A DNA stretch of 64,000 nt. Source: Tolypothrix carrinoi HA7290-LM1. GTDB taxonomy: Bacteria > Cyanobacteriota > Cyanobacteriia > Cyanobacteriales > Nostocaceae. Below are positions 26,881 to 46,672 of this stretch, piece after piece; the stretch's first letter is position 1; each line of letters opens with the position of its first letter. The translations under genes were made by a program, and so were the position numbers. The notes beneath the pieces were generated by a model, which saw only the letters and a program-made list of their open reading frames with translations, made no database searches and had not been told where the DNA came from. The stretch spans positions 31,656 to 95,655 of the forward strand of contig JAHHIK010000017.1 in assembly GCA_019358935.1 (NCBI GenBank), given 5' to 3'.

Positions 26881-27701
26881 GTCACCTCCACAGCAGTTTT
26901 CCCATCTTGGAACACAGCATAAAAAATGTATTGTTGCCCACCACGCAGAACTTGTAATGGTAGTGATTCGCTATCGCTTTGATTGAGATAGTTGCTTAAA
27001 TCATTCGGTTGAGAGAGCGATCGCCCCGACACCCCAATCAGCACATCACCAACTTGCAAACCAGCTGCTTCAGCAACACTTTGAGAATGCACTGATAAAA
27101 TTAATAAGCCCAAGCTGCGTTTTACCAGTACAGGTTGTAAAGTCACCCCCAGCTTTCGCCGATTTCCATTCAGAAAAAGCTTTACAGTTGAGCTTGATAT
27201 TGCCACAGCCAAATTATTGGCAATCATGGTATTAATTCCGACAACGCGACCGAGACAATCGGCAAGCGGACCGCCGGAATTACCAGGATACAGTTGAATA
27301 TCTGCCATTACCAAACGCCGATCGTTTGTGTGGATAATCCCGGTTGTGACTGCACCACTGTCACCAAATGGATTACCCACAGAAGAGACTAATTCACCTA
27401 CTCGTAGCGCATCTGCATCGCCGATGGTTGCGGTATTTAAGTCAGTGGCGGCAATTTTCAAAGCTGCTAAATCTTGCTGTGGGTCAAAGTGTGTCCGTAC
27501 TGCATCAAATGTGCGTCCATCTGACAATTCGACAGTTGTCTTGTTGCTGGTGGCGACATGGGCGTTAGTGATGATTAAACCGTCTCTTTGCCAGATTACG
27601 CCGGAACCGCTTCCTAAAGAACCGCTACGCACTTTGACGGTAATATTACGTAGTTTAGCAGCTAGGAGTGCTAATTCATCAGTTATTGCTGTGATAGTCA
27701 T
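26877..27701 (-). CDS. S1C serine protease with PDZ (catalytic)
   Basis: [25 protein letters not shown]-terminal PDZ. Confidence 0.88.
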   Translation of the reverse strand: MTITAITDELALLAAKLRNITVKVRSGSLGSGSGVIWQRDGLIITNAHVATSNKTTVELSDGRTFDAVRTHFDPQQDLAALKIAATDLNTATIGDADALRVGELVSSVGNPFGDSGAVTTGIIHTNDRRLVMADIQLYPGNSGGPLADCLGRVVGINTMIANNLAVAISSSTVKLFLNGNRRKLGVTLQPVLVKRSLGLLILSVHSQSVAEAAGLQVGDVLIGVSGRSLSQPNDLSNYLNQSDSESLPLQVLRGGQQYIFYAVFQDGKTAVEVT

Positions 27702-27735
27702 ATTGGGGAAATTGTGATTTTTGAAGTGGGAATTG

Positions 27736-29810: not shown

Positions 29811-30179
29811 ATGGATGCGGATGAACTGAAGCGGCGTTATGTCGCAGGGGAAAGAGACTTTACGGGAGCGGATTTAAGCGGAGTTAAGCTGATTAAAGCC
29901 AATTTACCCGGAGTCAATTTATGGGCTGCAAACTTGAGTGCAGCTAACTTAGCTAAAGCAAAATTATGGGGAGCGAACTTTGAGGGAGCTAACTTAGCCA
30001 GAGCCAACTTGACTGGAGCTAACCTCAGCGGAGCGAATTTAAGTCAAGCTAATCTGCGGGGAGCCAAACTAAATAATGTCAAGCTGTATGGAGCTAATTT
30101 CACTGGTGCTTTCTATGATGAAAGTACCCGATTTGCTAGGGGTTTTGACCCTATCAGTCAAAATATGCGCTTAATTTGA
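29811..30179 (+). CDS. Pentapeptide repeat protein
   Basis: MDADELKRRYVAGERDF followed by A(N/D)Lxx repeats. Confidence 0.92.
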   Translation: MDADELKRRYVAGERDFTGADLSGVKLIKANLPGVNLWAANLSAANLAKAKLWGANFEGANLARANLTGANLSGANLSQANLRGAKLNNVKLYGANFTGAFYDESTRFARGFDPISQNMRLI

Positions 30180-30326
30180 TTTTGTTTAACTGAGCATATC
30201 TCGATTGTGGAGTTTTTAGCAAGACGACTTAAATTTGCATTAATTCTTCGGGATTCACTGTTAATTACTTTTAATAGTGTAATATGATATTTGATAATTG
30301 ACTACTAAACGTTAGGTAGGTTTTGG

Positions 30327-30926
30327 TTGCCAGACAATTCTCTCTCGCCAAAAGAAGTCTCTTCTAGTGGACGATCGCGCGTTCTTGATGAGGCTGAACA
30401 GCTATTTCGCAAGCGCGGCTACAATGCTGTGACAATGCGGGATATAGCTGTTGAGGTGGGAATTCGTCAGGCATCGTTATACTATCATTTCAAGAGCAAG
30501 GAGCAACTTTTTGTGGCAGTTACCGAGCGTGTATTTGAGCGTCACCGCACCGGTTTACAGCAAGCGATAAATTATGCAGAAACCAACTTGCGATCGCAAC
30601 TTCAAGCTGCTGCTGAGTGGTTTCTCTCTCAACCTCCTGTCCATTTTTTGAGCATGGCACATACAGATATGCCTTTATTAGGTGAAGAAAATATGAAATT
30701 GCTGTCGATTTGCTATGCCCAGTCTATTTTTGAGCCGCTGGGACAGATTTTTGCCCAAGCGCAAGAGCGAAAAGAAATTCGCAATACTCGTACTCAACTA
30801 CTAGCTGGGTTCTTTTTGTCTGTTATGGAAAGCATTCCCTATGTGACTACTCAACCGGGTACTGCACCCACAGAAGTTATCGTAAATGAAATGATTTCCG
30901 TTTTGTTGGATGGACTCAAGTTGTAA
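30327..30926 (+). CDS. TetR/AcrR family regulator
   Basis: AEQLFRKRGYNAVTMRDIAVEVGIRQASLYYHFKSKEQL. Confidence 0.92.
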   Translation: MPDNSLSPKEVSSSGRSRVLDEAEQLFRKRGYNAVTMRDIAVEVGIRQASLYYHFKSKEQLFVAVTERVFERHRTGLQQAINYAETNLRSQLQAAAEWFLSQPPVHFLSMAHTDMPLLGEENMKLLSICYAQSIFEPLGQIFAQAQERKEIRNTRTQLLAGFFLSVMESIPYVTTQPGTAPTEVIVNEMISVLLDGLKL

Positions 30927-30988
30927 ATAAAAACAGATTAAGGGATAAATTATACCACTGATAACCAAAATAATTTTTTTTGCCTATT

Positions 30989-31008
30989 TACCTATCTAAT
31001 GATAGGTA
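30989..31008. promoter_or_regulatory. Putative TetR operator palindrome
   Basis: TACCTATC-taat-GATAGGTA; a degenerate copy lies at about 30299-30319, before tetR. Confidence 0.55.
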
Positions 31009-31200
31009 GTTAAATTAATCCGAGGGAAATTTTGGAACTATAGCGATCGCCTTGACCGTCTACGTATAAACTATCTCAAAGTTTGCCGCGTTGTTATACC
31101 AGTTGTGTGGGTAATATTTGCGATTGCAATCGACAGATAATTATGGTTTTAATCAAATTACTGCTTAAACTTGTAGTGTTTTATATAGGAGTCAATAAAG

Positions 31201-31659
31201 ATGCAACGTACTTTCAAAAGCCTTTTACTTTTAACCGCTGTTATAAACTTGACAGCTTTACAAGAAGCAAAAGCAGTGTCAAACAGTAGCCTTACCGTCA
31301 CGATTAACGGGTTGAAAAGCCAGCGCGGGCAAGTTTGCCTGAGTTTGTTTTCGGGTGGACGAGGATTTCCTGGCAGTAGCGATCGCGCTGTGGCTGCCCG
31401 TTGTGTCAAAGTAGAAAACACACTGCTGACAGTTAAATTTGACAACTTAAAAGCCGGAAATTATGCGATCGCCGCTTTTCATGATGCCAACGGTGACGGT
31501 ACTCTCAATCAAAATCCGTTGGGTATTCCCACAGAAGAGTTTGGCTTTTCTCAAAACCCGAAAATTCTCACAGGTGCGCCAAAGTTTGCCGATTCTGCGT
31601 TTCTAGTCGCAGGTCCTGAGACTAACATTCAAATTAAGTTGCTGAACTTTTTCGGCTAA
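31201..31659 (+). CDS. DUF2141 domain exported protein
   Basis: Signal peptide; GNYAIAAFHDANGDG.L..N.LGIPTEEFGFSQNP...GAPKF. Confidence 0.88.
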   Translation: MQRTFKSLLLLTAVINLTALQEAKAVSNSSLTVTINGLKSQRGQVCLSLFSGGRGFPGSSDRAVAARCVKVENTLLTVKFDNLKAGNYAIAAFHDANGDGTLNQNPLGIPTEEFGFSQNPKILTGAPKFADSAFLVAGPETNIQIKLLNFFG

Positions 31660-31803
31660 AGTAAAGGCTATAGCATTACTTTGTTGTTATTCTACAGTGA
31701 ATGATAAGTAGGTCGGCGGAAAAATTTACAAGTATGTAACGAAAATTTAACTACAATTAGAGTTAAATTGAAAACCTCGTATGATTTACTGAATTTACTT
31801 TTT

Positions 31804-31831
31804 GCAGCACGATCTCATCATTCTTCGTATA
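31804..31831 (+). promoter_or_regulatory. Putative ECF-like promoter GCAGCA-N16-CGTATA upstream of the sigma-like gene
   Basis: gcagca cgatctcatcattctt cgtata; the same boxes and spacing recur in the downstream repeats. Confidence 0.65.
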
Positions 31832-31889
31832 AATAGTAGTGGAGGTTATCGTATACTTAATGACATTGCTACAACTATGTCATTAGTTT

Positions 31890-32549
31890 ATGGACGAGCT
31901 AAACCTCCACCTGCAATCGTTCATTCAAGAGGCTTGCAGTCACATACCAGCCAGCCCACAGCGTCGTAAAGCCCTAAATTGTCTGCTCCGAGCCGTTCTG
32001 AAATCGGGGTGTCTTTGGACACCAGCAGCAGGGGATATTTATGAAGAGGCTCTATACAAAACCATGTTTAATTTAACCAAAACACTCTGCGATAAATACG
32101 ATCCAAGTCGAGGTTCATTCTTGACTTGGTTTAACATTTGCCTTCGCAGTCAGTACATGGATGAAATTCGCGCTGCCAAACGCGATCGCTCTCATAAACA
32201 GTCTGTATGGCAAAGTGATGAGGTCGAACTCGATCCCTTAGATCGAGTTGCTTCTGGTATAGATGCTACTTTGCTGCTTAACACTTGGGAATCATTTGTC
32301 CAATGGATTAAAGACGATCCTGATAATCTTCTTAAAGCTTGCCACATCGAAAATAATCCAAAAGCTAACTGTCAATTGCTTGCTTACTTGAGACTCGTCA
32401 TCGGCAAAGAATGGCAGGAAATTGCTCAAGAAGTTGGCTCATCACGCGGTGCAGTTACATCTCATTGGTCAAGAAAATGTCAACCTTTGCTCCGAGAATG
32501 GTTAGACAAAAATCAGAGGTTGTTTGGAGAAGATAACTATGAGCGATAA
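31890..32549 (+). CDS. Sigma-70 family/HetZ-like transcription factor
   Basis: Region-2-like YEEALYKT...YDPSRGSFLTWFN; C-terminal HTH EWQEIAQEVGSSRGAVTSHWSR. Confidence 0.75.
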   Translation: MDELNLHLQSFIQEACSHIPASPQRRKALNCLLRAVLKSGCLWTPAAGDIYEEALYKTMFNLTKTLCDKYDPSRGSFLTWFNICLRSQYMDEIRAAKRDRSHKQSVWQSDEVELDPLDRVASGIDATLLLNTWESFVQWIKDDPDNLLKACHIENNPKANCQLLAYLRLVIGKEWQEIAQEVGSSRGAVTSHWSRKCQPLLREWLDKNQRLFGEDNYER

Positions 32550-33417
32550 GCTAAATGTCTTACGGGAACTGGCAATTCCATTCCCAGTGACTGTATCGTT
32601 TAAAAGACAAGCCAGAGTCTACGCGTCGCAGTACTTCACTCAAGATGCCCAACAAAGAATTTATTTTAATACCCTAGCTGTACTCGTTGCTGATGCGTAT
32701 TTTCGTATGCTCGGTTTCGAGACTAATCTTGCCAAGCCAGAAAGATGGAATGCAGCTTATCGTCTGTGGAACGAAGCAAACGAGCTAGAACTGATTGGAT
32801 TGGGCAATTTGGAATGTCGCGCAATTGCTACAGGACAACAGTCTGTTATTTTACCACCGGAAAGTTTGAGCGATCGCATCGGCTATTTATTTGTAGAAAT
32901 CGCTAGTTCTGAAAAATCAGCGACACTGATTGGTTTTCTGCCTGCTTTTCATCCGGAAACTACAGATGCAGAAGTGGCGATCGCCACTTTACAGTCTATG
33001 GATGACCTCATTGATTACTTGACGCTCACGCAAGAATTTGCCGAAAAAAAACTTACTTACTTAAGAAACTGGTTAAATAACGTTTACGAGGCAGACTGGG
33101 AACCCTCAATGCGCGATCTCAGGAGTGCCACCTGTAAGAAAAAGCTCCAACTGGCAGGGCAAGTATTTGAAATGCAACTTTCTGTTTCTCAGAGCAACGA
33201 CGAATTGATTTTGGTTAGAGTTAATGTCAAAAGTGAAAGTGGTTCTCTACCTAGAGGAATGCAGGTCAGTGTACCAGACGAATCTGATATTTATACCGAA
33301 ACAGTGAATGAGGCTGCCGATCTTATTTCTATTCCTCTGGAATTATCTTCAGGTGAGGAGTTCTGGGTAGAGTTGCGGATAGGAGAAACCTTCATTAGAG
33401 AATACTTTATCGCCTGA
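32539..33417 (+). CDS. DUF1822 family protein
   Basis: QRIYFNTLAVLV..YF.MLG, LECR, DRIGYLFVEI...ATLIGF, LRNWL...W, F.VEL.....EYF; overlaps the sigma gene. Confidence 0.8.
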   Translation: MSDKLNVLRELAIPFPVTVSFKRQARVYASQYFTQDAQQRIYFNTLAVLVADAYFRMLGFETNLAKPERWNAAYRLWNEANELELIGLGNLECRAIATGQQSVILPPESLSDRIGYLFVEIASSEKSATLIGFLPAFHPETTDAEVAIATLQSMDDLIDYLTLTQEFAEKKLTYLRNWLNNVYEADWEPSMRDLRSATCKKKLQLAGQVFEMQLSVSQSNDELILVRVNVKSESGSLPRGMQVSVPDESDIYTETVNEAADLISIPLELSSGEEFWVELRIGETFIREYFIA

Positions 33418-33429
33418 AAAAAAGTTGCA

Positions 33430-35685
33430 ATGGCATTTAGAATCTCCTTTAAAATTGGCGGACGAGTACAACTTAACCATTCTGAAGTTCTGCCTGTCAC
33501 CCTTGCCATCTACGATCAACAAGGGCAAATAGAAGAACTCGTTTCGTTTCTTTCTCCTCTACCAAAACCTCTTGAAGATAAGTTTAAACAATGGCAGTAT
33601 TATATTGGTCTTCAAGGTAATCGTAAGGTTGCCAAAAATCAGAACAATCTAATTTCAGGTGTAGTCAATCTCACAGAACTCGCTAATTCCTTGAAAGCCG
33701 AATTAAACAAATGGTTAGGTAGCGATGGCTGGATTGATGAGAATGGACAATCCGATCCGCGTGTCAGTCAGGTTTTGGAAAGATTCAGGGAGAAAATTAC
33801 CCAAAAAGATGAAGTCCAGATTATTGTGCAGACAGAAGACCGACAACTGCGGGGACTTCCTTGGCAAGAGTGGGATACCTTGGCAGGCTATACTAGCAAA
33901 GGCGTAGAAGTTGCCATCAGTGCTACAAATTTCAAGCGACTGATTCAAAAGCAAACACCACAACTGAAAGCAACTGCACGCATACTTGTGGTGTTTGGTG
34001 ACGAAAAGCTTGGTTTTGCAGAAGAAGAAGATTTTATCAAAAGCCTGAGACAGCATGGCGGAGAACCCGATATCCTCAGACAACCTACACGTCAAGAATT
34101 AGAACAAAAGTTAAAAGACTCTCAAGGCTGGCACATTTTCTTTTTTGCAGGACATAGCCAAAGCGATCGCGACGGACGGATTGGACGCATTCAAATTAAC
34201 CCAGCCGATGGTGAACAAGGAATTATCGAAATCACGGAACTGAAAGATTTACTTGAAGGTGCAATCGAGAAAAAGTTGCAACTAGCAATCTTTAATTCTT
34301 GTGATGGTTTAGGACTGGCAAACCAGCTAACCGAGCTATCTCTACCCTACTGTATTGTCATGCGGGAAATGGTTGAGTCCTCTGTTGCTAGAGAATTATT
34401 GAAGCATTTTCTCGCAGCTTTTGTCAAAGATCGCTCTTTATTTGCATCGATGAATGCAGCCAGACAGCAGTTACAACAGAAATTTGAACCAGGTAAGAGT
34501 TGGCTTCCTGTAATTGTTGCCAATCCTCTGGCTAAAGAACTGACATGGAATCGTTTGTTTTCGGAGAGGAGGTTATCTTGGCAGTGGGAGATGCTATTGG
34601 GTATGGTTGCGATCGCTGTGCTGGTTTGCCTACCCATCGGCATATTTAGCGAGTTCCATTCTTTGGAAACCTTGACACTTTACGCGAAACTTTACCCTCA
34701 CCTTGTAGTGTATCCTTCTCTGTTTCTCTGGATGCCTTTGTTTGCGGCTTACAGAGCACATTGCATGATTCGCGTCAAGACACGTCCGTTTGTAATTATG
34801 ACACTCGTAACTGTGTTTTTCACATTGGGGGGGCTGTTGTTTGAGATCACTGGCGATCGCATAATGTTAATGGAGTTCAAATCCGATGCGACGACGACAA
34901 TTTACGCACAGCAACTCCCGGAACTTTACTTAAAGTGGAGAACTTCAAAGGCAGAAATCTCTAACATCCCCCAAGAAATTTTTAATCCTCGTCAGGTTTT
35001 CGACACTGAAGGAAATTTGACACTGAAAAAATCAGAGTTAGAGCCAGTCATAAAACGTCTTCACAGACTCAATAACATCAACATCGCGGGATTTCAAGGG
35101 CTTTTGCGGATTGCTACCGACTATGACGTTTGGCGACAAAATACTAAAGCTTTCTCGATAAGTCGATGGTTTTATGCTCTCAGCTTTGTTGCCATTATTA
35201 GTTGTGGTGTTCAGATTCTGGCACTTGTGGTGACAATTTGGCTTGAACCAGATTCTATATTTAACAAGAATAAATACTTGACATATGTCATCATATGTGA
35301 ATTGGGTATCCTGTTATGGCTGCCCTTTCAAAGCTACAGCATAGAGCATACCAAAAGCCTGTTATTTTCACCTGAGTTTAAAGGTACTCTAGCCGGACTT
35401 AATGTTCTTCTTTACGCAATTATTTCCATCATATTTTCGCCAACTATTATCTGCATATACAGAAGTGCAACTAAAAAATATCAGCCTATTTTATTGTCAT
35501 TCTTGTTAGGTAGTTTTAGTTTGACGCTTCTAGGTAGCTGGTTTGGTGTTTCTCTGATCGATCGCGTATTTGGGATGAGTAGTACCAATCCCCTGACTCC
35601 TTGGTTTGCAAGTAGCATTTTCTTTGCTGCTTTATTTTTCTTTTTGTTCGTGCGGTTGATTGATCGTGGCGTTGGAGACCAGTGA
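33430..35685 (+). CDS. CHAT-domain (caspase/HetF-like) protease fused to a multi-TM sensor region
   Basis: LPWQEW, FFFAGHS (His), IFNSCDG (Cys), VMRE, ARQQL, WLPVI; then about 8 hydrophobic helices with an extracytoplasmic loop. Confidence 0.85.
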   Translation: MAFRISFKIGGRVQLNHSEVLPVTLAIYDQQGQIEELVSFLSPLPKPLEDKFKQWQYYIGLQGNRKVAKNQNNLISGVVNLTELANSLKAELNKWLGSDGWIDENGQSDPRVSQVLERFREKITQKDEVQIIVQTEDRQLRGLPWQEWDTLAGYTSKGVEVAISATNFKRLIQKQTPQLKATARILVVFGDEKLGFAEEEDFIKSLRQHGGEPDILRQPTRQELEQKLKDSQGWHIFFFAGHSQSDRDGRIGRIQINPADGEQGIIEITELKDLLEGAIEKKLQLAIFNSCDGLGLANQLTELSLPYCIVMREMVESSVARELLKHFLAAFVKDRSLFASMNAARQQLQQKFEPGKSWLPVIVANPLAKELTWNRLFSERRLSWQWEMLLGMVAIAVLVCLPIGIFSEFHSLETLTLYAKLYPHLVVYPSLFLWMPLFAAYRAHCMIRVKTRPFVIMTLVTVFFTLGGLLFEITGDRIMLMEFKSDATTTIYAQQLPELYLKWRTSKAEISNIPQEIFNPRQVFDTEGNLTLKKSELEPVIKRLHRLNNINIAGFQGLLRIATDYDVWRQNTKAFSISRWFYALSFVAIISCGVQILALVVTIWLEPDSIFNKNKYLTYVIICELGILLWLPFQSYSIEHTKSLLFSPEFKGTLAGLNVLLYAIISIIFSPTIICIYRSATKKYQPILLSFLLGSFSLTLLGSWFGVSLIDRVFGMSSTNPLTPWFASSIFFAALFFFLFVRLIDRGVGDQ

Positions 35686-36299
35686 ATATGGAAGGTAAAT
35701 TAGTCAGCAAAGAACAGCAGAAAGTAATGCTGATTGTAAGCTTGGCATACATTTTGCCTGTTCTACTGATTTATTTGGGATTAGTTCCTTTTCGGGCGCG
35801 GTTTTATATCCTGATCTTGGCTGCTATTGCTATTTTAGCGATCGCTCGACTCTACCGATTTTCTCTTGTAGAACTGGGATTTACTAAACAACACCTGGGA
35901 ACTTCTCTCAAAGCGATCGCTCTACCAACCTTAGCTTCTGCTTTGCTCATGTTCATTTACTATATGATGCGAGGGATACGTATTGATAACTCTGCATACA
36001 AATGGACTTTCTACCTTTTCTTTGTTCTAGTGTCTTCTCCTCTACAAGAGTTTTTGTATCGCGGCTTTTTATTTGGTATTTTTTCGAGAGCAAAGTTGGC
36101 GATTTGGTTACATATTTTACTCTCAACGTTACTCTACAGTTTCGTTCATCTCATTTATCAAGATGTACCTACGCTGCTATCCACATTTATCCTTGGTATG
36201 TTCTGGGGCTATCACTACGCAAAGTATCGGAATTTATATAGTATCATTATCAGTCACTCACTACTTGGTGCGATCGCTATTCTAGTTGGTCTGGTATAA
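35682..36299 (+). CDS. CPBP (Abi/CAAX type II) intramembrane protease
   Basis: QEFLYRG, YSFVH, IISHS motifs; GTGA overlap with the CHAT gene. Confidence 0.85.
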   Translation: MNMEGKLVSKEQQKVMLIVSLAYILPVLLIYLGLVPFRARFYILILAAIAILAIARLYRFSLVELGFTKQHLGTSLKAIALPTLASALLMFIYYMMRGIRIDNSAYKWTFYLFFVLVSSPLQEFLYRGFLFGIFSRAKLAIWLHILLSTLLYSFVHLIYQDVPTLLSTFILGMFWGYHYAKYRNLYSIIISHSLLGAIAILVGLV

Positions 36300-36770
36300 T
36301 AAAGCTCAAGCAAAATTTTTTGAGTGTTGTGCAGCACAGGGTGACTCTCGTAGGTATATAAACTGAGCCTGTAGTGCGATCGCTATAAGAGTGATGGTAT
36401 CAGGCTCAAGCAAAGTTTTTTGAGTGTTATGCAGCACGGGGTGACTCTCCTACGTATATAGATTGAGCAGGAGTGCGTTCGCCCTTGGCGTTGGCGTTCG
36501 CGGAGCGTCTCGAAGAGAAGCCATCGCTATTTTAGTTGTTCTGGTATAAATCAAGCAAAATTTTTTAAATGTTGTGCAGCACGGGGTGACTCTAGTACGT
36601 ATCTAGATTGAGCAGGAGTGCGTTCGCCCTTGGCGTTGGCGTTCGCGGAGCGTCTCGAAGAGAAGCCATCGCTATTTTAGTGGGTCTGGTATCAGACTCA
36701 GGCAAAGTTTTTTGAGTGTTGTGCAGCACAGGGTGACTCTAGCACGTATATGTATTGTGAAGGATAGGAA
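36270..36770 (+). repeat. Four tandem ~100-bp promoter-bearing units (HIP1-bounded; two with an identical 45-nt insert in HIP1)
   Basis: TCAAGCAAAATTTTTTGAGTGTTGTGCAGCACGGGGTGACTCTAGTACGTATATAGATTG consensus, with GCAGCA at 36331, 36431, 36576 and 36723. Confidence 0.92.
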
Positions 36771-36918
36771 ACTAACCAGATGAGGAAGGAATGAGTAAGT
36801 ATGTTGCAAAAAGTATTTGTAAATCTTGTAATAGCTGTCAAAATTACTTTTGATCATCTTAAGCCATGTTAGCTAATAGTTGTACAAGTTTACCTAAATT
36901 TATGACCCACGATATAGT

Positions 36919-37995
36919 ATGTTTGACTTAAATGCAAAACGTCGAAAAACAATAGCCTCATTTTTTAGCTTATCTCTTGCCTTTGTTTTAATGGTAAGTT
37001 GTGTTGCTGCTCCTCCGATAACTTTGGCAACTATATTTAGTGCGGCTAATACACTCGTCAGCTTAATTGATATTACTGAGAAAGCATTTTACATAACTTC
37101 TAAATTAGTAAATACTTCTTATGGAGAATTAAAAGTAAATTTAGATAGTGAAAGATTCGTAGTTAATCCAAATTTCTCTAATGCAACCATCGAAAATATG
37201 GAAGCTCGACATTTAGATTTATCAACACAACATAAAGAATTGGATAATTCAATTTATAAAACTAATGTAGCTGCAAACAAATTCTTTTCAATGCTTGAAA
37301 CAAGAGCTAACCAAAATTCTAGACCTGAATTTAAAGAAAAGTTATTGCGTGATATTCGTGTCAGTAAAAAAGCTTTTGGAGAGAAAATAGAAGTAGCTGA
37401 AAATGTTTCATCAAAACTTAAATTTTCAATCAAAGAATATGACAATATTCTCAGTTTTTTACAGGTAACTACAGTGCTTAAGGAAGCACAGAAATACATT
37501 ACAACGGTTGATTCGGTGATATCACAGTATGAAACCTTGAATCAAGAGGTTCAGGTAGCCCTGAATGAAGGACGGCAAATAATTGCAAATGTTGCGGATG
37601 TTCCTTCTAAAAAGCCTGAAGGGGCAGTTTCCATACCAACACCTAACGAAAATACAACCCAACAGCAAGTAGATCATCCCGTCTTAGGAATAAAGGGTAT
37701 AGGTCTGACACAAGAAGCGCGTCAGCAGATCAAGCAAGACAAAAATCTCGAACACCTCTTACTAAATCTAGATAATGTAGATAAGGGTGTCCTGGTAGTT
37801 GAAGTATTTCAAAATTCCTCTGCTGCTGAGGCTGGTATCAAAGCGGGTGATGTTATTTTGACAATCAATGGCAAAGCTGTAACTGATGTCAGTGAAATTA
37901 CAGCCGAACTCAAAAAATCTCAAGTAGGTGCACAATTACCCTTGGTAGTGCATCGCAATCAACAAAACTGGGAATTTTTGGTGCGTCTCATTTAG
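36919..37995 (+). CDS. Lipoprotein with coiled-coil region and HtrA-type PDZ domain
   Basis: Lipobox MVSC; helical middle; VDHPVLGI...GVLVVEV...AAEAGIKAGDVILTING PDZ. Confidence 0.78.
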   Translation: MFDLNAKRRKTIASFFSLSLAFVLMVSCVAAPPITLATIFSAANTLVSLIDITEKAFYITSKLVNTSYGELKVNLDSERFVVNPNFSNATIENMEARHLDLSTQHKELDNSIYKTNVAANKFFSMLETRANQNSRPEFKEKLLRDIRVSKKAFGEKIEVAENVSSKLKFSIKEYDNILSFLQVTTVLKEAQKYITTVDSVISQYETLNQEVQVALNEGRQIIANVADVPSKKPEGAVSIPTPNENTTQQQVDHPVLGIKGIGLTQEARQQIKQDKNLEHLLLNLDNVDKGVLVVEVFQNSSAAEAGIKAGDVILTINGKAVTDVSEITAELKKSQVGAQLPLVVHRNQQNWEFLVRLI

Positions 37996-38089
37996 CTGAA
38001 CTTCATCTTCTATCTACGGATATTGCCCTTGACTTATCAAAACTTGCCATTGAAGCACACGATTAAGACTATTAAACTGAAGCAACCTT

Positions 38090-38362
38090 GCATTGCTATT
38101 TTAGTAAGTCTGGTATCAGGCTCAAGCAAAATTTTTTGAGTGTTGTGCAGCACGGGGTGAGTCTAATACGTATCTAGATTGAGCAGGAGTGCGATCGCCG
38201 TTCGCGCAGCGTCTCGTTCGCGATCTTCGTCTTTGTTCGCGTAGCGTCCCGAAGGGAAGGAGAAGAGAAGCCATCGGTACTACAGTATCAAACTAAAAAA
38301 AAATTAAGTCTTTTGCAGCAAGGGGTGAGTCTAGTCCGTATATAGATTGTGAGGGATACGAG
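38090..38362 (+). repeat. Two further promoter-repeat units separated by nested small dispersed repeats
   Basis: GCAGCA at 38147 and 38315, each followed by CGTAT after 16 nt; HIP1 at 38191. Confidence 0.88.
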
Positions 38363-38425
38363 ACTGCTGCTCATTTGACCCCGTAATTAGATGGACGAAA
38401 ACACACACCGAGGTGAATTACGAAA

Positions 38426-38677
38426 ATGAAAAATCAACTATCGAACAGTCCTATGAAATTTATGATTCGGTTATCAACTCTTGCTTTAGTTGCAATCGCG
38501 ATGGTCGGTTGCGATGAAGAAACTCAACAACAACCTGACCTGAGCCAACAAATGCCGGATCAGCAAATAACCCAGCCCAACCGTCAGCCCGAACCTGAGT
38601 CCTCTTCTGCACCAAGCAATCCACCGATCGATCCTTTCTATGGTTCGGGTCCAGGCGGCTCGTTCTACGGAAATTAA
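38426..38677 (+). CDS. Small lipoprotein ending PIDPFYGSGPGGSFYGN
   Basis: RBS GAGGTG; lipobox MVGC; Q/P-rich linker. Confidence 0.75.
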   Translation: MKNQLSNSPMKFMIRLSTLALVAIAMVGCDEETQQQPDLSQQMPDQQITQPNRQPEPESSSAPSNPPIDPFYGSGPGGSFYGN

Positions 38678-38683
38678 TCTGTA

Positions 38684-38760
38684 GCCTCAAGCAAAATTTT
38701 TTAAGTGTTATGCAGCACGGGGTGACTCTAGTACGTATATAGATTGTGAGGGATACGAAA
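38684..38760 (+). repeat. Promoter-repeat unit
   Basis: GCAGCA at 38712, CGTATA at 38734. Confidence 0.9.
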
Positions 38761-38872
38761 CCGCAAAGGTAAGTCAGAATGTCTGCTGCTGTAAGCTTCC
38801 ATTCTGCAATTCTATCTACAACCATCGATTACCTCAGTTACCAAAACCTATCACCATAAGGAATACAGTCTT

Positions 38873-39388
38873 ATGAAATTTATTGTTGGGTTATCAAGTC
38901 TTGCCTTATTTTCACTCTCTAGCGTTTCTCCATGTTTAGCTGTCAACCAGTTGGTCAGTCCCTCGGTAGATAAAACTTTACGCAGTACAACAACAACAAT
39001 CCAGGTGGCTAACACCTTCGGCTCTGTCATCCAAATAATCAATACAGTAGACCACGAGATACGCAACAGAGAAAGAGCCAGGCAAAGACAAGAAAGTTTA
39101 GATATCTATAGACAACGAAATGAGGAACGACAAAGAAAGCTAGAAGCCACTAGACAAGCAGCTAGACAACGGCGAGAAGCATACCTGCAAAGCCTCACAC
39201 CCCAGCAGCGAGCAAAGTTTCTGGCAGCAGAGCGGGAACGAAACACCCTGATGTGGCGCACCCTTATTGATGCCGCAACCATCACGGCACCCACGACGAG
39301 CAATGATGGTTCCAGCACAGGAACAGGGTATCGTAGTCAGGTTGAAAATTGCCACTACGACAATCAAGGTCAAACGATATGTTGGTGA
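38873..39388 (+). CDS. Secreted hypothetical protein (LTxxQ helix, C-terminal C-x9-C)
   Basis: Signal MKFIVGLSSLALFSLSSVSPCLA; YLQSLTPQQR; ends NCHYDNQGQTICW. Confidence 0.75.
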   Translation: MKFIVGLSSLALFSLSSVSPCLAVNQLVSPSVDKTLRSTTTTIQVANTFGSVIQIINTVDHEIRNRERARQRQESLDIYRQRNEERQRKLEATRQAARQRREAYLQSLTPQQRAKFLAAERERNTLMWRTLIDAATITAPTTSNDGSSTGTGYRSQVENCHYDNQGQTICW

Positions 39389-39485
39389 GAATGCTCCTAC
39401 TCCTACGGTTTAAGTAAGTCGGCACAAATGTTTGTAGTTCGATTATCCCAGTCACAAAAAGCTACCACTAACAGGATATATTCTT

Positions 39486-39989
39486 ATGAAATTCATTGTT
39501 GGGTTATCAAGTCTGGCTTTATTTTCACTTTCTAGCATTTCTCCATGTTTAGCTGCCAATCAGTTGGTCAATTCTTCAGAGCAATCTTTACCAAGTACAA
39601 CAAAAACAATCCAGATTGCTCAAACACGGCGACGTGTCAATATGTATCAAAGAAGAAAACAACAAAGTGCCGCCGCCGCCGCCGCTAGACGTGAAGCAGA
39701 AAGAAGATACTTTCAAAGTCTGACTCCAGAACAAAAACGAGCATATATTGCTCAGAGACGGGCTAGACAGGAACAACAAGCGAGACAGATGTTACTAATG
39801 CTTGGAATACTGGGGGCAGCAATGGGGGGGAACTCAGGCGCGTCACCAAGCTCAAATGCTAATCAAGACAGATGGATTGTAGAAGATAGCTATAACAGAC
39901 AACCAGCATATCAATCTGCTCCTACACCTGTTGCACCAATTAGTCCCTTCTACGGAACGGGTCCTGGAGGATCATTCTATGGCAATTAG
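39486..39989 (+). CDS. Secreted hypothetical paralog ending PISPFYGTGPGGSFYGN
   Basis: Near-identical signal peptide; YFQSLTPEQK; hydrophobic helix; conserved tail. Confidence 0.78.
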   Translation: MKFIVGLSSLALFSLSSISPCLAANQLVNSSEQSLPSTTKTIQIAQTRRRVNMYQRRKQQSAAAAAARREAERRYFQSLTPEQKRAYIAQRRARQEQQARQMLLMLGILGAAMGGNSGASPSSNANQDRWIVEDSYNRQPAYQSAPTPVAPISPFYGTGPGGSFYGN

Positions 39990-40082
39990 ACCAGGAAAAT
40001 AACTAAAACGAGCGGTAAGGAGTGAGATTAATAACTTTTCCATCTCACCCCTTTCCCATAACTGATATTTCTTTATCGCAAC

Positions 40083-40934
40083 ATGAGTATCTTTAAACAA
40101 CAAAGGATTATGAATTTAAGTAGAATCGGTTTGATTTTAGCTCCGATTTTAGTGACCTCTGCCACTTTTTTTCCTTCTCAGGTAAGAGCAAAATCGCGAA
40201 TTACCTCAATAGGTGATGCTGCTCTTAATGCGGCTGATCATTGTCGCAAGAATGCTCCAGCATTTTTACGTGAAAATCCCACAAATATGAAGGTTATGGC
40301 TAGTCACTGTGCACAAATTGTTCACAGAGTTGTTGCGGCTCTGAGGGCAGCTAAATATCGTCCGACAGGTTTAAATTTACAATCAGATAGAGATTTGACG
40401 GTTTTCATCAACAGAACTTCTCCTATCCTTGCCAAAGATGCTTCTGTTACTCAAAGTATTAGAAGTGCGCGAGATGTATTTAGCGATGATGTGATAGAGA
40501 CAATTCTCTTGGGATCAATTGGTGTGTATGCGTATCTGGATTTTGGCATTGACATTACTCACAATTCGCGTAATCGAACACTTGGAGGATGGGAGGCAGC
40601 AATTGGGGGTAACTCAAGAGCTTCATCAAGATCCAACTCCTCACCAGTGGCTTTACCTTCTCCTAATTCGCCTCCTCCTTATTTACCTTCTCCTAATTCT
40701 CCTCCTGTGAATGCACAAAAAAAGATTTCGGATCAGCGAGTTTTAGCCCGAATTTCTAATAATGTTTGCCAAAAATACGTTACTATTCAACAAAAACATC
40801 AAGCTTGTAATCGATTAACAGTTAGCGGAATATCGGCTTTAAATAGCTCCAGGCTTAATCCCATTGGGGTGAATTTAAGAAATGACTCACAGTTTCAAGC
40901 TTATCTAAAAAAAGCGGGAGATGTCTTGACTTAG
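40083..40934 (+). CDS. Secreted hypothetical protein with Pro-rich linker
   Basis: Signal peptide ending VRA; LPSPNSPP x2; paired Cys in two domains. Confidence 0.7.
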   Translation: MSIFKQQRIMNLSRIGLILAPILVTSATFFPSQVRAKSRITSIGDAALNAADHCRKNAPAFLRENPTNMKVMASHCAQIVHRVVAALRAAKYRPTGLNLQSDRDLTVFINRTSPILAKDASVTQSIRSARDVFSDDVIETILLGSIGVYAYLDFGIDITHNSRNRTLGGWEAAIGGNSRASSRSNSSPVALPSPNSPPPYLPSPNSPPVNAQKKISDQRVLARISNNVCQKYVTIQQKHQACNRLTVSGISALNSSRLNPIGVNLRNDSQFQAYLKKAGDVLT

Positions 40935-41256
40935 GACAATTCCTTTATATCCTCTTTCACATTTGCTTCGAGTCATTTAACTAAACAAGAAACTTCAGAT
41001 ATTTACTTGTCTATCATTATTGCTTATAGTGCGTTTAAGAATCAAGGATACTAGAATTCTCGTAATATAGTTCATAGTGAGGAATTTATTTCTGCTTTTA
41101 GGACTAAATTTCTTAATACTAACCTGTAATTATTGACGCTGAGGATAATCTTTTCTATAGCTTTTCTAATTTTCCATACTCGTCAATTAAGTTAGATGTA
41201 GATTGGGTTGAGGCTTTGTGAAACTCGACATTATCAACATTTGTAATTAATAATTT

Positions 41257-41814
41257 ATGTCTAAGCTCAGAAAAAGGCTAATAAATCTTTCCTTCATGGG
41301 TGGTGCGATCGCACTGTTACTTATTCCAACCACCTCTTCCTATGCTTCAAGCCTTAATAGTATTTTCTTCATTACCAAGAGTGACAACGGTAATCAGGTG
41401 CATTATGGTGTGCAGACTAATGCAGACTGCTCTCTAAAAGCTCCTAAACCTGTGTACCCCTATTGGAAGCTCGAAAGTGGTCGGTTAGAGCGTTTGCTTT
41501 CCATTGAGGTTCCAGCTTTTGGTATTGCCAGCCAATCAGTTTCAGGCAATGAAGTAGTCATGGAAGTGAACGGCTTCAAAGCACGAGGAATTTCAAAACC
41601 CATTACGATTCGATCTACCCAATTAAAAAGTCAAGAGTGTCAAATATTGGCTTTTACAAAAATCAATGGTGAAGCCACTCGGCTGCTTCAAGTTCATATT
41701 GACTTGACTAGACAGGGTTTATTTGGGCTTGGTGGTACCGTTCACAGCATCACATTTTACGGTGCTGATCAAAAGCAGGAAAAGATTGTTTGTAAATCTA
41801 ATTGTAGTTTCTAA
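41257..41814 (+). CDS. DUF4833-like secreted protein
   Basis: Signal peptide; IFFITKSDNGNQVHY...PVYPYW...E..AFGI. Confidence 0.7.
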   Translation: MSKLRKRLINLSFMGGAIALLLIPTTSSYASSLNSIFFITKSDNGNQVHYGVQTNADCSLKAPKPVYPYWKLESGRLERLLSIEVPAFGIASQSVSGNEVVMEVNGFKARGISKPITIRSTQLKSQECQILAFTKINGEATRLLQVHIDLTRQGLFGLGGTVHSITFYGADQKQEKIVCKSNCSF

Positions 41815-42025
41815 GAGGTCTTTGCCTCTAATTGTCTCATCCCTTCTCTATGAAAGTTTAATTCTTCGCCCAGTAATTGTCATAGAAGTATGGGCGATCG
41901 CTATTCTATTCAGAAGCCAATTAATTAGCGATCGCAAACGTTGAGAGGTTTGTAGTTTCATTAAACAATAAAAGATTATGAACTTAAGCAGAAGTGGTTT
42001 AGTTTTAGCAACGAGGTAACTGAAT

Positions 42026-42958
42026 TTGAAGCAAGCTCATCGAGCAATTCTATCCATAATCGCGGGCGTGGTTCTATCCACGTTCCCTAACATGGCTCTG
42101 GCTCAATCTGAAATACAGCCAAGTCAACGAGTTAGATATACCGGACTATTTACTAATACAACTTATAACTTGAGTGGTAACGTAGTTATAGAAGTTGTGC
42201 TTGAACGTCAAAATAGAATATCTGGCTACATCAATTTTACAAACTATCCAAGTGTACGGACTATCTGCGGAGCAGGGAAATTTGCAGGAATACGAGGAGG
42301 GCGTAATTTGCTATTTGATTTTGTTTCTAGTGACCCTGACCCTGGCTGCGGATTTGATCGTGGATTGAAGTTTACAGTTAGCGCAACTCTTTCAGAGGAC
42401 AACCGTACGTTAGAAAATGGAAGTTACCAAATTAATAACTCGCAGGCAGGTGTCTTTACAGCTAGTTCTTCTACTGCACTTGTACATCCCTGCAATGATG
42501 ACAGAATAAACGATAATTACAATAAAAATGATTCAAATTATCATTATTATAGTCTGACAAATGGAATTTGTTCTAAAACTTTGAAAGGCTGTACTAGGGA
42601 AAAAGTTTTCCAAACTATGATTTCACAAGAGCAGTTCATTGTGCCTTCTCCTCTTGATGATAAACCAGTAGTCCATTGTCGAGAAAAAACTTTAACTCTT
42701 GGAAATCCAATTAGAACTACTATCAATTCAAGTGACTACTCAATAACAAATTACACACTTCCAGGACATATGTTTCATCCAGGCAAGATTACTCGGAGAG
42801 TTATTGAAACAAATGATGCGATCAAAGTAACAACAATTGGAGAAGGGGTAGGCGACTACAAAAAATTCAACATATGGGTGGCTCCAGATATATGGAGTCG
42901 TGCTGATATCCTTTTAAGTGTGAGAGTAAGGTTGATTTTGTCAAACAAAAATAATTAG
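42026..42958 (+). CDS. Secreted two-domain hypothetical protein
   Basis: Signal peptide ending ALA-Q; beta-rich N-domain; C-domain NYTLPGHMFHPGKITRRV...TIGEG. Confidence 0.72.
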   Translation: MKQAHRAILSIIAGVVLSTFPNMALAQSEIQPSQRVRYTGLFTNTTYNLSGNVVIEVVLERQNRISGYINFTNYPSVRTICGAGKFAGIRGGRNLLFDFVSSDPDPGCGFDRGLKFTVSATLSEDNRTLENGSYQINNSQAGVFTASSSTALVHPCNDDRINDNYNKNDSNYHYYSLTNGICSKTLKGCTREKVFQTMISQEQFIVPSPLDDKPVVHCREKTLTLGNPIRTTINSSDYSITNYTLPGHMFHPGKITRRVIETNDAIKVTTIGEGVGDYKKFNIWVAPDIWSRADILLSVRVRLILSNKNN

Positions 42959-42988
42959 TGTAGAGGCTCCAAGCATAGCAAAGCACAG

Positions 42989-43309
42989 CTGCTTGCTATT
43001 GAGGTTCCAGTTTTTGGTATTGCTAGCCAATCAGTTTCAGGCAACGAAGTAGTCATGGAAGTGAACGGCTTCAAAGGACGAGGAATTTCAAAACCCATTA
43101 TGATTCGGTCTACCCGATTAAAAAGTCAAGGGTGTCAAATATCGGCTTTTACCAAAATCAACAAAGAAGCTACTCGGCTGCTTCAAGTCCATATTGACTT
43201 GACTAGACAGGGTTTATTTGGGCTTGGTGGTACCGTTCACAGCATCACATTTTACGGTGCTGGTCAAAAGCAGGAAAAGATTGTCTGTAGTTCTAATTGT
43301 AGTTTCTAA
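42989..43309 (+). pseudogene. 5'-truncated duplicate of the DUF4833-like gene
   Basis: About 320-bp direct repeat of 41494-41814 lacking the signal peptide and N-terminal half. Confidence 0.88.
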
Positions 43310-43456
43310 GAAGTTTGTGCCCCTGGCTGAAAAAAATTTTGGTAAGAATTTACACCCCATTCAATTTTTATTTAAATATTGAATGTTTGACTGTTGACTG
43401 TTGAAAATTCAAGTTTTATTTAGCTTTATAAATAATAAGATAACTGTATTTACATT

Positions 43457-43927
43457 ATGGCAAGAATATCATTTCCAGATAACCTTTTCTTAAAATGTTG
43501 GATATTTTGGATTATAGTCGAATGTACATTTAAAATTTCTTACGAGATGAAATCACCCACTACATTTAAGGAGTTGGAATTTTTTCATGGATTAATATTA
43601 CCTTGGTTTTGTGGGGCGATATAATCTGATTTTAAGTTTTTGTCATATGGAGTAATTGCAGTACATATATATATTGTCTTAGTTATACTCTTTCAAAACT
43701 ATGGTCTTATAAAAAATGTTAAGACATGGGTTCGTATACTATGTGTGCCGGCAATTTTCACAATATGGATTGAGCCTTGGATTACTTTTGTCACTCATAA
43801 ATCACCAGAGATTTTATTGTCTTTTTCCTTTTTACATCCGATATTATTTGTTGTTGACATAACTTTTTCTTTATTATGGCTTGTGTTAACTTACATTATT
43901 TGTAAATTCCTTGACGAGGAATTTTAG
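43457..43927 (+). pseudogene. AT-rich membrane-protein ORF interrupted by one in-frame TAA (43622-43624)
   Basis: ATG at 43457 is open for 55 codons, then TAA, then the same frame continues into the 43640-43927 hydrophobic ORF. Confidence 0.5.
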
Positions 43928-43948
43928 ATTTACTTGGTTTAATGTAAA

Positions 43949-44010
43949 CCTCAAGAAAAATTTCTTCACTGTTTGCAGCACGGAATAATTCAAAAGACGT
44001 ATATAATTTG
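43949..44010 (+). promoter_or_regulatory. Divergent promoter-repeat copy GCAGCA-N17-CGTATA
   Basis: CCTCAAGAAAAATTTCTTCACTGTTTGCAGCACGG...CGTATATA. Confidence 0.65.
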
Positions 44011-44234
44011 TGATGAAATCTTTGGTGTTTAACCCTACGAATGTCACTCTCGCAGGAGTATAATTAAGGGCGAGTGCCTCCGGCACGCTACGCGAACGTG
44101 AAAACCGAAGCAGAGAGTATGGTTGAACCTCGCCTTTCTGAGGCAATGGGCAGATGATGAACGCCGCACCTTGAACAATTTAATAACGATACTTCTAGAG
44201 AAGCGGTAACAGAGAAAAAGGAGAATAAAAACGA

Positions 44235-44600
44235 ATGACCAACGCAGGACAACCACCAACCATTGAGGAACGCTTAAGCCGCCTAGAAAATATCTTTGCC
44301 AACATTGGTGAAACGGTAGTTGCACAAAGCGACACTATTGATGTTGTCGTTAAGAACATCACGCAATTGAGCGAGAACGTCAACAGGTTGAATAATGTTG
44401 TTGACAATCTAGCTATCAGTGTCAATCAGTTGAGTACAGAAGTATCAACAACAACTAGGAATATTGCAGCTTTAACAACCCAAGCCGCAGAAGACAGACA
44501 ACAAGCCGCTATTGACCGCCAAGAGTTCCGAACAGAGATTCGGCGTATTTGGGAATATCTACGCGATCGCAACGGTGGCAGCAGCACACCTAGTAGTTAA
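44235..44600 (+). CDS. Coiled-coil hypothetical protein (cyanobacterial IRRIWEYL type)
   Basis: RBS AGGAG; heptad pattern. Confidence 0.75.
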   Translation: MTNAGQPPTIEERLSRLENIFANIGETVVAQSDTIDVVVKNITQLSENVNRLNNVVDNLAISVNQLSTEVSTTTRNIAALTTQAAEDRQQAAIDRQEFRTEIRRIWEYLRDRNGGSSTPSS

Positions 44601-44653
44601 TTCTGAGGAGAGGAAGACAAAAAATGACTCCAGGCAAATTAGAAATTACTATA

Positions 44654-45024
44654 ACTTACGCATTGACAGAAAATTGATACTATGCAGTCAAGCCAAACTT
44701 CTGTGTTAGGTGTTTCAAAATAAAGTCACGAGCCACTTGAAGAGATAAATTTCTTTGGATTTCATACCAATTTTCAATTAACTCTTCGACACGCATTAAT
44801 TCTAATTGTGTAAAAGCTCGAATTGCACTAAAAAAATGAGTTTTAATTGCCTCAGTTGTTCTCACCATGAAGTTACCGATACCACATACTTGTTTAATGG
44901 CTCTGTGCGAAGATTCAATTCCCCAATGTATTGAATGTAATTCCTTAAATTCGGTTCTAGAGATTGAATTTAGTACATCTTTATCAGGATTGTACATAAT
45001 GTAATATCTGTAAGTTTCGTTTTT
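44654..45024 (-). mobile_element. IS701-family transposase 3' fragment with terminal repeat
   Basis: HWGIESSHRAIKQVCGIGNFMVR...H signature; end sequence TGTCAATGCGTAAG; 5' part missing. Confidence 0.75.
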
Positions 45025-45196
45025 GTACGGAGGAAACCGAGCGCGAGAACTTCTCTCTGCGTTTCAAAACGCTACGAACTTATACAAAGCTGTACTTAGC
45101 AATTTTCCGGCGAAAGCGATTTAAATCGAGTCGCGACCTCTTGTAATAAGACAATTTAACTGTTATCAAGATGTGGGGAATGATAAAGTTTTAGAT

Positions 45197-46672
45197 ATGC
45201 GTATTCAAATTGTAATTTTGATTGTCGGGATGTTTGTCAGCTGGAGTTACCAGGTGCGTGCAGAATCTGAACTGAAGAATGATACCAACTTGCCGTCAAC
45301 CGTAGAAACTGACATAGAGAATATGGATGAACCACTCCCCACATTACCAAGTGTTGAGAGGGCTGAGGTTAGCGAGAAAATTGTTAAAGATATCCAAATC
45401 CGTTTTCTCAATAATAAAGATAAGTGGGTAGATGAAAAAGGTCGCCCCATAGAAGGACGGACTCAGAAAAATTTTATCATTGACAATCTGAGATTAAAGC
45501 CAGGTCAAATATTTCGTAACGATTTATTTCAAAAAGACGTAGAAAGATTAAGGAGATTAAATTCATTTGATAAAGTCAACTTTGTTTTAGAAGAAGATGA
45601 TACAAGTCTTAATATCGTCTATTACATTAAAGAAAATAAATTTCCTTCTTGGAACTTTGGCGGTGGTGATAACGGTGATGTTGGGCTTTACGGTAAGGTA
45701 GGTTATCGAGATGCAAACATCAACGGACTTAATGAACAACTAGATACTAGCGTTCAAGTCAGCGGTAAAGATGTTCAATTTGATACTTCCTTTATCAGCC
45801 CTTATCGTCGAGGAGAACCAAGTCGCTTAGGTTACAGCTTTCGAGCTTTTCGCGAACGAGATTTATCTCGAACCTTCAACGATGAAATCAAGTTGTCAAA
45901 CGGTAGCACCGCACGAGAAGGAAGATTTGGCGGTTCTTTTGCTGTTTTAAAATCTTTTGATGATTGGGATGCAGCTTTAGGTCTGAACTACACGAGAATT
46001 AGCTTGCGCGATCGCGATTATAATCTGGCACGAGTCGATAGATTGGGAAGCCCTCTTTCAGTAAGCGGTACTGGTATTGATGATTTAGTTACAGTGTCCT
46101 TTGCTGTCAGCAAAGATGAACGCGATCGCCGTAGCAATCCAACTAAAGGATCGCTTCTGACTCTTAGCACCGAACAAGCAATTCCCATCGGACTCGGTAA
46201 AATTGCTAGTAACCGATTGCTGGCAAACTATATTTTATACGTACCAGTTACTTTCATAGGTAATAGCTCAACAGAAAATACAGAAATGATCGCTTTGAAT
46301 TTGCAAGCTGGGACAAATATCGGCGAATTTCCACCCGCAAACGCATTTGATTTGGGTGGATTGAATTCTGTTAGAGGTTACGGAGGTGGTAGAGTCGCTA
46401 GCGCACGTAGTTATGGTTTGGCTTCTGTAGAATATCGTTTCCCGATTTTGCAAAGAGTCGGAGGAGTTTTATTTGCAGACTTCGGTTCCGATTTTGGGTC
46501 TAGCAAAACCGTGTTAGGGGAACCGGGTATACTGCGAGGTAAACCCGGAAGTGGGTTTGGTTACGGGTTAGGATTGCGAGTCAAGTCACCGTTTGGCTTG
46601 ATTCGCGGTGACTTGGGAATTAGCGACCAGGGAGAAGTCAAATTTGAAGTTACCACCGGTCAGCGGTTTTGA
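45197..46672 (+). CDS. BamA/TamA (Omp85) family outer membrane protein
   Basis: One POTRA-like domain, LGGLNSVRGY, SVEYRFP, GLRVKSPFGLIRGD, terminal Phe. Confidence 0.9.
   Translation: MRIQIVILIVGMFVSWSYQVRAESELKNDTNLPSTVETDIENMDEPLPTLPSVERAEVSEKIVKDIQIRFLNNKDKWVDEKGRPIEGRTQKNFIIDNLRLKPGQIFRNDLFQKDVERLRRLNSFDKVNFVLEEDDTSLNIVYYIKENKFPSWNFGGGDNGDVGLYGKVGYRDANINGLNEQLDTSVQVSGKDVQFDTSFISPYRRGEPSRLGYSFRAFRERDLSRTFNDEIKLSNGSTAREGRFGGSFAVLKSFDDWDAALGLNYTRISLRDRDYNLARVDRLGSPLSVSGTGIDDLVTVSFAVSKDERDRRSNPTKGSLLTLSTEQAIPIGLGKIASNRLLANYILYVPVTFIGNSSTENTEMIALNLQAGTNIGEFPPANAFDLGGLNSVRGYGGGRVASARSYGLASVEYRFPILQRVGGVLFADFGSDFGSSKTVLGEPGILRGKPGSGFGYGLGLRVKSPFGLIRGDLGISDQGEVKFEVTTGQRF

Follow-up and report, generated by a model that had tools for sequence, protein, structure and literature searches.

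Copies of a predicted ECF sigma factor promoter in front of a protease-linked operon and its neighbouring genes in Tolypothrix carrinoi

The 64,000 nucleotide stretch of Tolypothrix carrinoi HA7290-LM1 analysed here (contig JAHHIK010000017.1, positions 31,656 to 95,655, forward strand), hereafter the window, encodes a small protein resembling extracytoplasmic function (ECF) sigma factors, and a bipartite promoter-like motif recurs in front of its gene and downstream of it. Exact matches to GCAGCA-N16-CGTAT were found on the plus strand at positions 31804, 36431, 36576, 36723, 38147, 38315 and 38712 of the window, and a further one with a 17-nt spacer (GCAGCA-N17-CGTAT) at 43975 brings the exact total to eight, while a ninth plus-strand site at 36331 carries GGTAT instead of CGTAT. 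These nine same-strand sites had been listed in an earlier sequence-only reading of this DNA, and their coordinates were confirmed, as were the shared orientation and the upstream A/T tract claimed for all copies (9/9 sites, each also with a T directly 5' of GCAGCA). In 100 dinucleotide shuffles of the window 0.06 matches were expected by chance and no shuffle reached eight. However, the seven sites at 36331 through 38712 belong to copies of a single local repeat unit of about 65-100 bp (families D1 and D2), so the shuffle test overstates independence and nine copies are not nine independent observations. The 43975 site also has flanks in common with this cassette repeat (families D5, D6 and D9), which leaves roughly two independent sequences in the window, that at 31804 and that of the cassettes. 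No known structured RNA was matched in Rfam between 31000 and 45000.

The 31804 site (31803..31829, plus strand; -35 TGCAGCA, 16-nt spacer, -10 CGTA), the predicted autoregulatory promoter, precedes an operon of four plus-strand genes. The first (31890..32549) encodes the ECF-like sigma factor of 219 aa, with predicted sigma-2 and sigma-4 folds and with Arg186 opening the predicted recognition helix. The second encodes a DUF1822 protein (32539..33417), a putative anti-sigma factor, and overlaps the sigma stop codon. It is followed by a CHAT (caspase-like) protease gene (33430..35685), whose product has the His242 and Cys291 motifs, about 130 residues N-terminal to the CHAT match and, judged from its sequence, a hydrophobic C-terminal half, and by a CAAX/Rce1-like (Abi) intramembrane protease gene (35682..36299), the 3' end of which contains the HIP1 site that starts the first cassette. 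The four-gene order is maintained in nearly all of 31 ortholog loci.

The remaining eight sites lie 3' of the operon, interspersed with plus-strand genes mostly without known families, which we call cargo. The first cassette (36270..36383), bounded by HIP1 octamers at 36270 and 36376, holds the GGTA variant of the promoter (36330..36356), and copies at 36430..36456 and 36575..36601 follow. The copy at 36722..36748 stands 5' of a gene for a PDZ-domain protein with a hydrophobic N-terminus (36919..37995), behind which comes a copy at 38146..38172. Next are the copy at 38314..38340, 5' of an open reading frame (ORF) for an 83-aa protein with a hydrophobic N-terminus and no Pfam family (38426..38677), and that at 38711..38737, 5' of a run of cargo genes (38873..43927) starting at 38873, 39486, 40083, 41257, 42026, 43055 and 43640. 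A diverged copy with the 17-nt spacer (43974..44001) closes the island. These promoter copies and genes are all on the plus strand, and four copies (36330, 36430, 36575 and 38146) have no gene before the next copy.

Among 389 genomes of the family, 27 have an ortholog of the 31890 protein (defined at E<=1e-40), the window genome being one of them; the distribution is patchy, with one copy on a conjugative plasmid. Thirty-one loci (the window, 28 further regions, L008 and L042) were compared, and a relaxed form of the motif was present 5' of the sigma gene in 30 of them, always on the strand of the operon. As this relaxed pattern had been drawn up by the analyst, a search with no assumed motif was run, leaving out the near-duplicate L042 and the broken locus L093 and taking the 1 kb after the CAAX gene as the downstream region. 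The top shared word was TGCA-N19-CGTA, found in 27/29 regions upstream of the sigma gene and 23/27 downstream regions; the best shared words of the reverse-strand control reached only 9 and 13 and were T-tract words. That both boxes are conserved ahead of the sigma gene agrees with the earlier proposal of a promoter in front of the gene itself. Between the upstream and the first downstream site of the same locus, spacer identity was 40% (21 loci), so the boxes are kept at two positions with drifting spacers, the pattern that had been claimed for promoter elements. Outside the columns of the search pattern, the first downstream sites had T at offset 34 in 21/23 and a purine at 35 in 23/23. As these T-purine columns match the layout of sigmaHetZ promoters, the predicted +1 falls near 31838 for the operon and at 36757, 38349 and 38746 for the copies before the PDZ gene, the 83-aa ORF and the gene run. 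Taken with the evidence below, we consider it very probable that TGCAGCA-N16-CGTA is an autoregulated -35/-10 promoter that is read by the 31890 sigma factor and drives both the operon and the local cargo array.

The sequence-only reading had expected a genome-wide scan for GCAGCA-N16-CGTA to define a regulon; the scan gave no dispersed regulon in this genome and sites confined to the locus. The strict pattern occurred in 25/27 ortholog genomes versus 32/362 genomes without an ortholog (reversed-pattern control, 14/389 genomes), and 50/53 matches in ortholog genomes lay within 20 kb of the sigma gene. A position matrix trained on 55 sites from relatives was also run at six spacings over the 7.96 Mb window genome, a 184-contig draft. 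Seven of the nine window sites and nothing else scored above 24 bits, and the two weakest window sites (22.2 and 22.3 bits) were close to an unrelated 17-nt site without CGTA (22.5 bits). A dispersed regulon in the window genome was rejected on these pattern and matrix scans, and the predicted regulon is local. In one relative, a detached motif copy was found 90 kb away, 5' of cargo homologs.

These distributions also bear on the view that the motif is the promoter of a genome-wide alternative sigma factor merely exploited by the island, which could draw on the matches in 32 genomes without a detected ortholog. However, 12 of these 32 have one near-identical sequence, and among the eight inspected, picked mostly for a cassette-like match, five (G365, G440, G537, G554 and G592) retain island remnants. 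Two others (G313 and G671) have a cassette-like copy with no core gene in the stretch retrieved, which that view can claim, and the last looks like chance. With no dispersed sites in the window genome, we regard a genome-wide sigma factor as extremely improbable. The near-identical sequence of the 12 genomes belongs to the genus g9 (e.g. G453:C1:3310880-3310910).

As the assignment of the motif depends on the nature of the 31890 protein, its structure was modelled (predicted local distance difference test score 81.7). The model aligned with SigC region 2 at VIA Z 8.9 (root-mean-square deviation 2.2, 83 residues aligned) and with SigR region 4 at VIA Z 7.2 (2.2, 65 residues), and the top Foldseek rows were almost all sigma chains, but at E>0.01. 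Sequence searches of the PDB gave nothing significant. The product is thus predicted from the model to fold as an ECF (group 4) sigma-70 factor with regions 2 and 4. Of 301 genomes sampled in the order, 178 have a homolog. The window genome, that of a HIP1-rich cyanobacterium, has a hetZ-like gene and patU elsewhere. Identity of the 31890 protein with HetZ, which has three insertions, was rejected (hhalign probability 0.3% versus the HetZ-like protein of the genome; 219 versus 396 aa); the HetZ_related family has the accession NF037964. L108, a long sigma linked to DUF1822 that was also tried as HetZ, gave general sigma families only among the best 25 of 45 matches.

A natural substitution suggests a link between the protein and the motif. 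In a six-locus clade with support 100/100, in a tree of 25 rows (five loci with no detected start were dropped and L093 was left out), Arg186 is replaced by Gln or Ser, and all 21 distinct sites of this clade read TGCAACA, with A and never G, while the 23 loci with Arg have G at this -35 position in 60 sites and A in one. The switch from G to A spans promoters with different spacers. The loss of Arg186 together with the change of the -35 base suggests that this residue reads the G of the -35 box, as a single event and not as a statistical association. In loci of the TGCAACA clade (L117, L118, L119 and L120), promoter-cargo cassettes also lie 5' of the sigma gene, where they precede LemA-like and other genes.

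Paralogous sigma genes served as controls, the window genome having two more short sigmas of the 31890 family. The paralog loci examined (G000:C62:16359 and 10660, minus strand; C106:11517, plus strand; L124, L125 and L161-L180) contain sigma, DUF1822, CHAT/CHASE2 and DUF928 genes, and another motif, YGCRTAA-N17/18-CGAGA, stands 5' of the sigma gene in 13/22 of them, with a second copy between genes further downstream in 5/22. In the window genome the second copy at C62 precedes a TPS-domain gene. The strict paralog motif occurs three times in this genome, in every case at the two paralog loci, and a scan of 564 kb of loci of the window type gave no match to its relaxed form in the orientation of the operon. 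Reciprocally, the window motif was found upstream of 0/31 paralogs and 0/26 distant homologs, and a third motif, YGCRWAA-N14-17-C(T/C)GATAA, precedes 12/26 distant homologs (L017-L040). Upstream words repeated downstream, sought locus by locus in 14 distant loci, were mostly noise; the truncated L105 was unusable. The drifting spacers, the co-occurrence of motif and gene, the Arg186/-35 change and the distinct paralog motifs together support the earlier suggestion that the motif is the recognition sequence of the 31890 sigma.

Several points weigh against this assignment. The orthologous loci are kin, so their counts are not independent trials, and two of them deviate upstream (a TACAGCA variant in L081 and a 15-nt spacer in L095). 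The switch at Arg186 is one event in one clade, so shared ancestry would explain it too. The paralog pattern was drawn from the loci on which it was scored, which makes its upstream count partly circular, and 9/22 paralog loci lack it upstream. The 31890 protein misses the family cut-offs (TIGR02937, 32.4 versus 42.9 bits; Pfam Sigma70_r2, 19.2 versus 24), no Foldseek match reached E<=0.001, and for a helical protein a top VIA Z of 9.4 is a modest value.

Low family scores would also fit the main rival explanation, in which the 31890 protein, as an ordinary DNA binder or dead sigma, or else a different factor binds the motif as an operator or as an activator site, with a TAnnnT box just after CGTA serving a housekeeping-type sigma. 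Any sequence-specific binder encoded at the locus would account for all of the covariation evidence, and the first downstream sites do show the box, with T at 29 in 22/23, A at 30 in 18/23 and T at 34 in 21/23. Yet this pattern is missing from the upstream copies (T at 29 in 1/25), and none of 26 sigma-70-type matches coincides with a motif site on the plus strand. As the site is also asymmetric with a fixed promoter-like spacing, and sigma-2 and sigma-4 folds are both predicted in the model, we judge this explanation unlikely.

If the motif is instead the promoter of the 31890 sigma, RNA polymerase carrying this sigma would initiate some 9 nt beyond the A of CGTA, on the conserved T-purine step, with Arg186 probably reading the G of the -35 box. 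The sigma factor would then switch on its own four-gene operon along with the adjacent genes for likely exported cargo, in positive feedback. The DUF1822 protein may hold the sigma off until the membrane-linked CHAT protease, perhaps together with the CAAX protease, cuts it and frees the sigma. This release is the weakest step of the scheme, to which we would give slightly less than an even chance, and it is proposed by analogy with HetF-PatU3-sigmaHetZ and Csx29-Csx30-CASP-sigma.

HetF cleaves PatU3, which sequesters HetZ (PMC9457339, PMC13342950), and Csx29 cleaves Csx30, which blocks CASP-sigma (PMC10028731). The sigmaHetZ-PatU3-HetF system resembles the island in being built on a cyanobacterial ECF-type sigma; a downstream inhibitor gene and a CHAT protease that cuts the inhibitor are features of sigmaHetZ. 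Its promoter layout, TCCGGA-N16-17-TGNA-N7-9-T (PMC13342950), agrees with the motif in the succession of a hexamer, N16-17, xGxA, N7-9 and T. Only the layout agrees, as the -35 box is TGCAGC here and the DIF1 sequence TCCGGA there, and HetZ has 546 promoter peaks while the window motif is confined to its locus. In the Type III-E system (PMC10028731) a CHAT protease likewise relieves an anti-sigma, and three strong sigma motifs lie in the locus with few outside. Such loci are marked by Cas7-11, Csx29/30/31 and a CRISPR array, while the window has no repeat-spacer array in 30000-46000 and its four core proteins matched no PADLOC family, on which a known defence system was rejected for the core; its outputs look exported.

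The four-gene core is already known as a computational neighbourhood. Kaur et al. 2021 (PMC8195603) described TRADD-N/EACC2-caspase neighbourhoods of cyanobacteria that include an ECF sigma and DUF1822, and their source data give the same gene set for WP_096606018.1, as helix-turn-helix (HTH), TRADD-N with TPRs (the DUF1822 protein), caspase with a transmembrane segment, and Abi. An ECF/HTH gene, a DUF1822 gene and a caspase-like protein with a variable C-terminus in one operon occur together here; neither a promoter nor a regulon nor a cargo array is given in the portion of the paper covered. For ECF sigmas to regulate themselves and targets close by is likewise standard, since the autoregulated ECF groups of Casas-Pastor 2021 (PMC7826278) show self-regulation, group-specific motifs and targets encoded nearby, as at the window locus. 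The covered text and supplement of that study do not mention DUF1822 or DUF928, and its CHAT-linked ECF54 is actinobacterial. In the open-licence PMC and bioRxiv literature, nothing was found that describes the promoter code, the variants specific to its clades or the array of cassettes.

The DUF1822 protein (32539-33417) was modelled as an alpha/beta domain with a beta-sandwich and no TPR array, unlike its label in Kaur et al. 2021, and the model had no Foldseek match at E<=0.001. Its nearest ESM Atlas clusters outside DUF1822 were all PatU (0.83-0.84, a lead-level score only); hhalign gave a probability of 0.1-0.2% for DUF1822 versus PatU, with no detectable homology, which speaks against the proposed parallel. 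Six further DUF1822 genes lie on contigs C131, C129, C83, C73, C161 and C28 of the genome, several of them directly 3' of ORFs of 390-520 aa, and the one such ORF tested, on C131, is sigma-like.

The structure of the array gives clues to how it may grow. The first unit includes the last codons of the CAAX gene and later units start with decayed copies of that end. The HIP1 site of the linker is split after its third base by a GC-rich small dispersed repeat (36475..36527, and again 36620-36672), which has up to 23 matches elsewhere in the genome, while the promoter part of the cassette has no copy elsewhere. SDR5-type HIP1 inserts (as cited in PMC4390886) similarly place a short repeat between the third and fourth base of HIP1; this likeness, drawn by description and not by sequence, covers only the linkers between cassettes and not the promoter part. 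Of 14 copies with a further copy no more than 330 nt away, eight are followed by a HIP1-like site, versus 1/39 others. We moderately favour an array that grows as the promoter unit is duplicated locally between HIP1 sites, which would leave empty copies as well as copies joined to new genes; that only 8 of the 14 tandem copies are followed by such a site counts against it. Partial duplicates, shared ends of cargo genes and deletion derivatives in relatives indicate a recombination-prone locus. In L093, L113, L114 and L115 internal deletions remove most of the core while the upstream and downstream promoters remain, and in L093 a fusion joins the N-terminal half of the sigma to the CHAT gene end. 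The sites had earlier been read as promoter elements rather than as a repeat; the promoter half of that claim is supported, and the other half fails, as seven copies are a locally duplicated, probable promoter cassette bounded by HIP1 sites.

The same features could be taken to mean that a cassette-capture system uses the units for recombination or insertion, or that they form a selfish repeat of local reach, their promoter-like look being secondary. The variable cargo and copy number, the empty tandem copies, the HIP1 boundaries with inserted dispersed repeats and the many deletion derivatives would all suit such a system. Yet the sigma gene, at which no exchange of cargo was seen, is preceded by the same boxes around an unrelated spacer, the boxes change along with the sigma protein, and the promoter part is unique in the genome to this locus. 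A general scan of 20 proteins for recombinase families, an integron feature, returned none, tyrosine recombinases included, with no dedicated attC search made, and none of the 25 longest of 125 inverted repeats lies inside a unit. We hold this alternative to be very unlikely beside a duplicated promoter.

The composition of the cargo varies between genomes, with 39 first ORFs falling into 12 groups. Of these 39 ORFs, 33 have a hydrophobic N-terminus, while four of the other six carry RTX repeats; the same crude N-terminus test was positive for 29% of 3912 ORFs of at least 200 aa in the genome background. In the window run, all six genes tested (all but 43055) encode hydrophobic N-termini. The cargo proteins are thus likely exported, as far as sequence features indicate. 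Families, scanned for 16 of the 39, include PDZ, COP23, LemA, WD40 and RTX with Hint domains. Very large RTX-repeat cargo with an N-terminal Hint domain lies behind the promoter at L083:6388-13275 and L088:5619-12899. Within the run, the start of the 39486 gene resembles that of 38873, the 41257 product is a DUF4833 protein and 43055 is a partial duplicate of 41257. A 300-nt duplication, 93% identical, of the end of the DUF4833 gene (41495-41794 and 42990-43289) flanks the 42026 gene, and the 83-aa, 171-aa and 167-aa cargo proteins (38426-39989) have N- or C-terminal segments in common, suggesting shuffling.

Our broadest proposal, held tentatively and with more doubt than confidence, is that protease-gated sigma modules form a large family in cyanobacteria, each module having its own orthogonal promoter code and a portable, locus-confined regulon. 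In this clade the module would have an expandable, HIP1-bounded array of promoter cassettes joined to interchangeable genes for exported proteins. It would be to promoters what the integron is to its gene cassettes and would move in one piece, a conjugative plasmid being among its carriers. The predicted promoter code would be a first predicted read-out for a widespread signalling module and makes this gene neighbourhood experimentally addressable, as to which genes are controlled, which sigma controls them, and how the caspase-like protease is triggered. The suggested output is exported or surface proteins and not evidently cell death. The clade-specific motifs and the switch of one residue and one base offer a natural test of -35 recognition, and the clade-specific sigma/promoter pairs are candidates for orthogonal switches in the engineering of cyanobacteria.

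The module was also found intact, with four motif copies at L181: 13914, 18477, 19550 and 19650, on the conjugative plasmid C of Trichormus variabilis ATCC 29413 (AVA_RS28195-28180), with a cluster of ThiF, JAB/MPN and prokaryotic E2 genes about 8 kb upstream of it (L181:2204-6049). In the window, a DDE transposase fragment (44680-44997, minus strand) lies just beyond the end of the island. On the other side, two tandem genes for what we take to be trypsin/PDZ-like proteases, followed by a presumed LuxR-type response regulator, occupy 26239-28641 (minus strand), and two similar genes at 23551-25792 (minus strand) encode proteins that end in VPEPS with a hydrophobic and basic tail, which we take to be PEP-CTERM-like.

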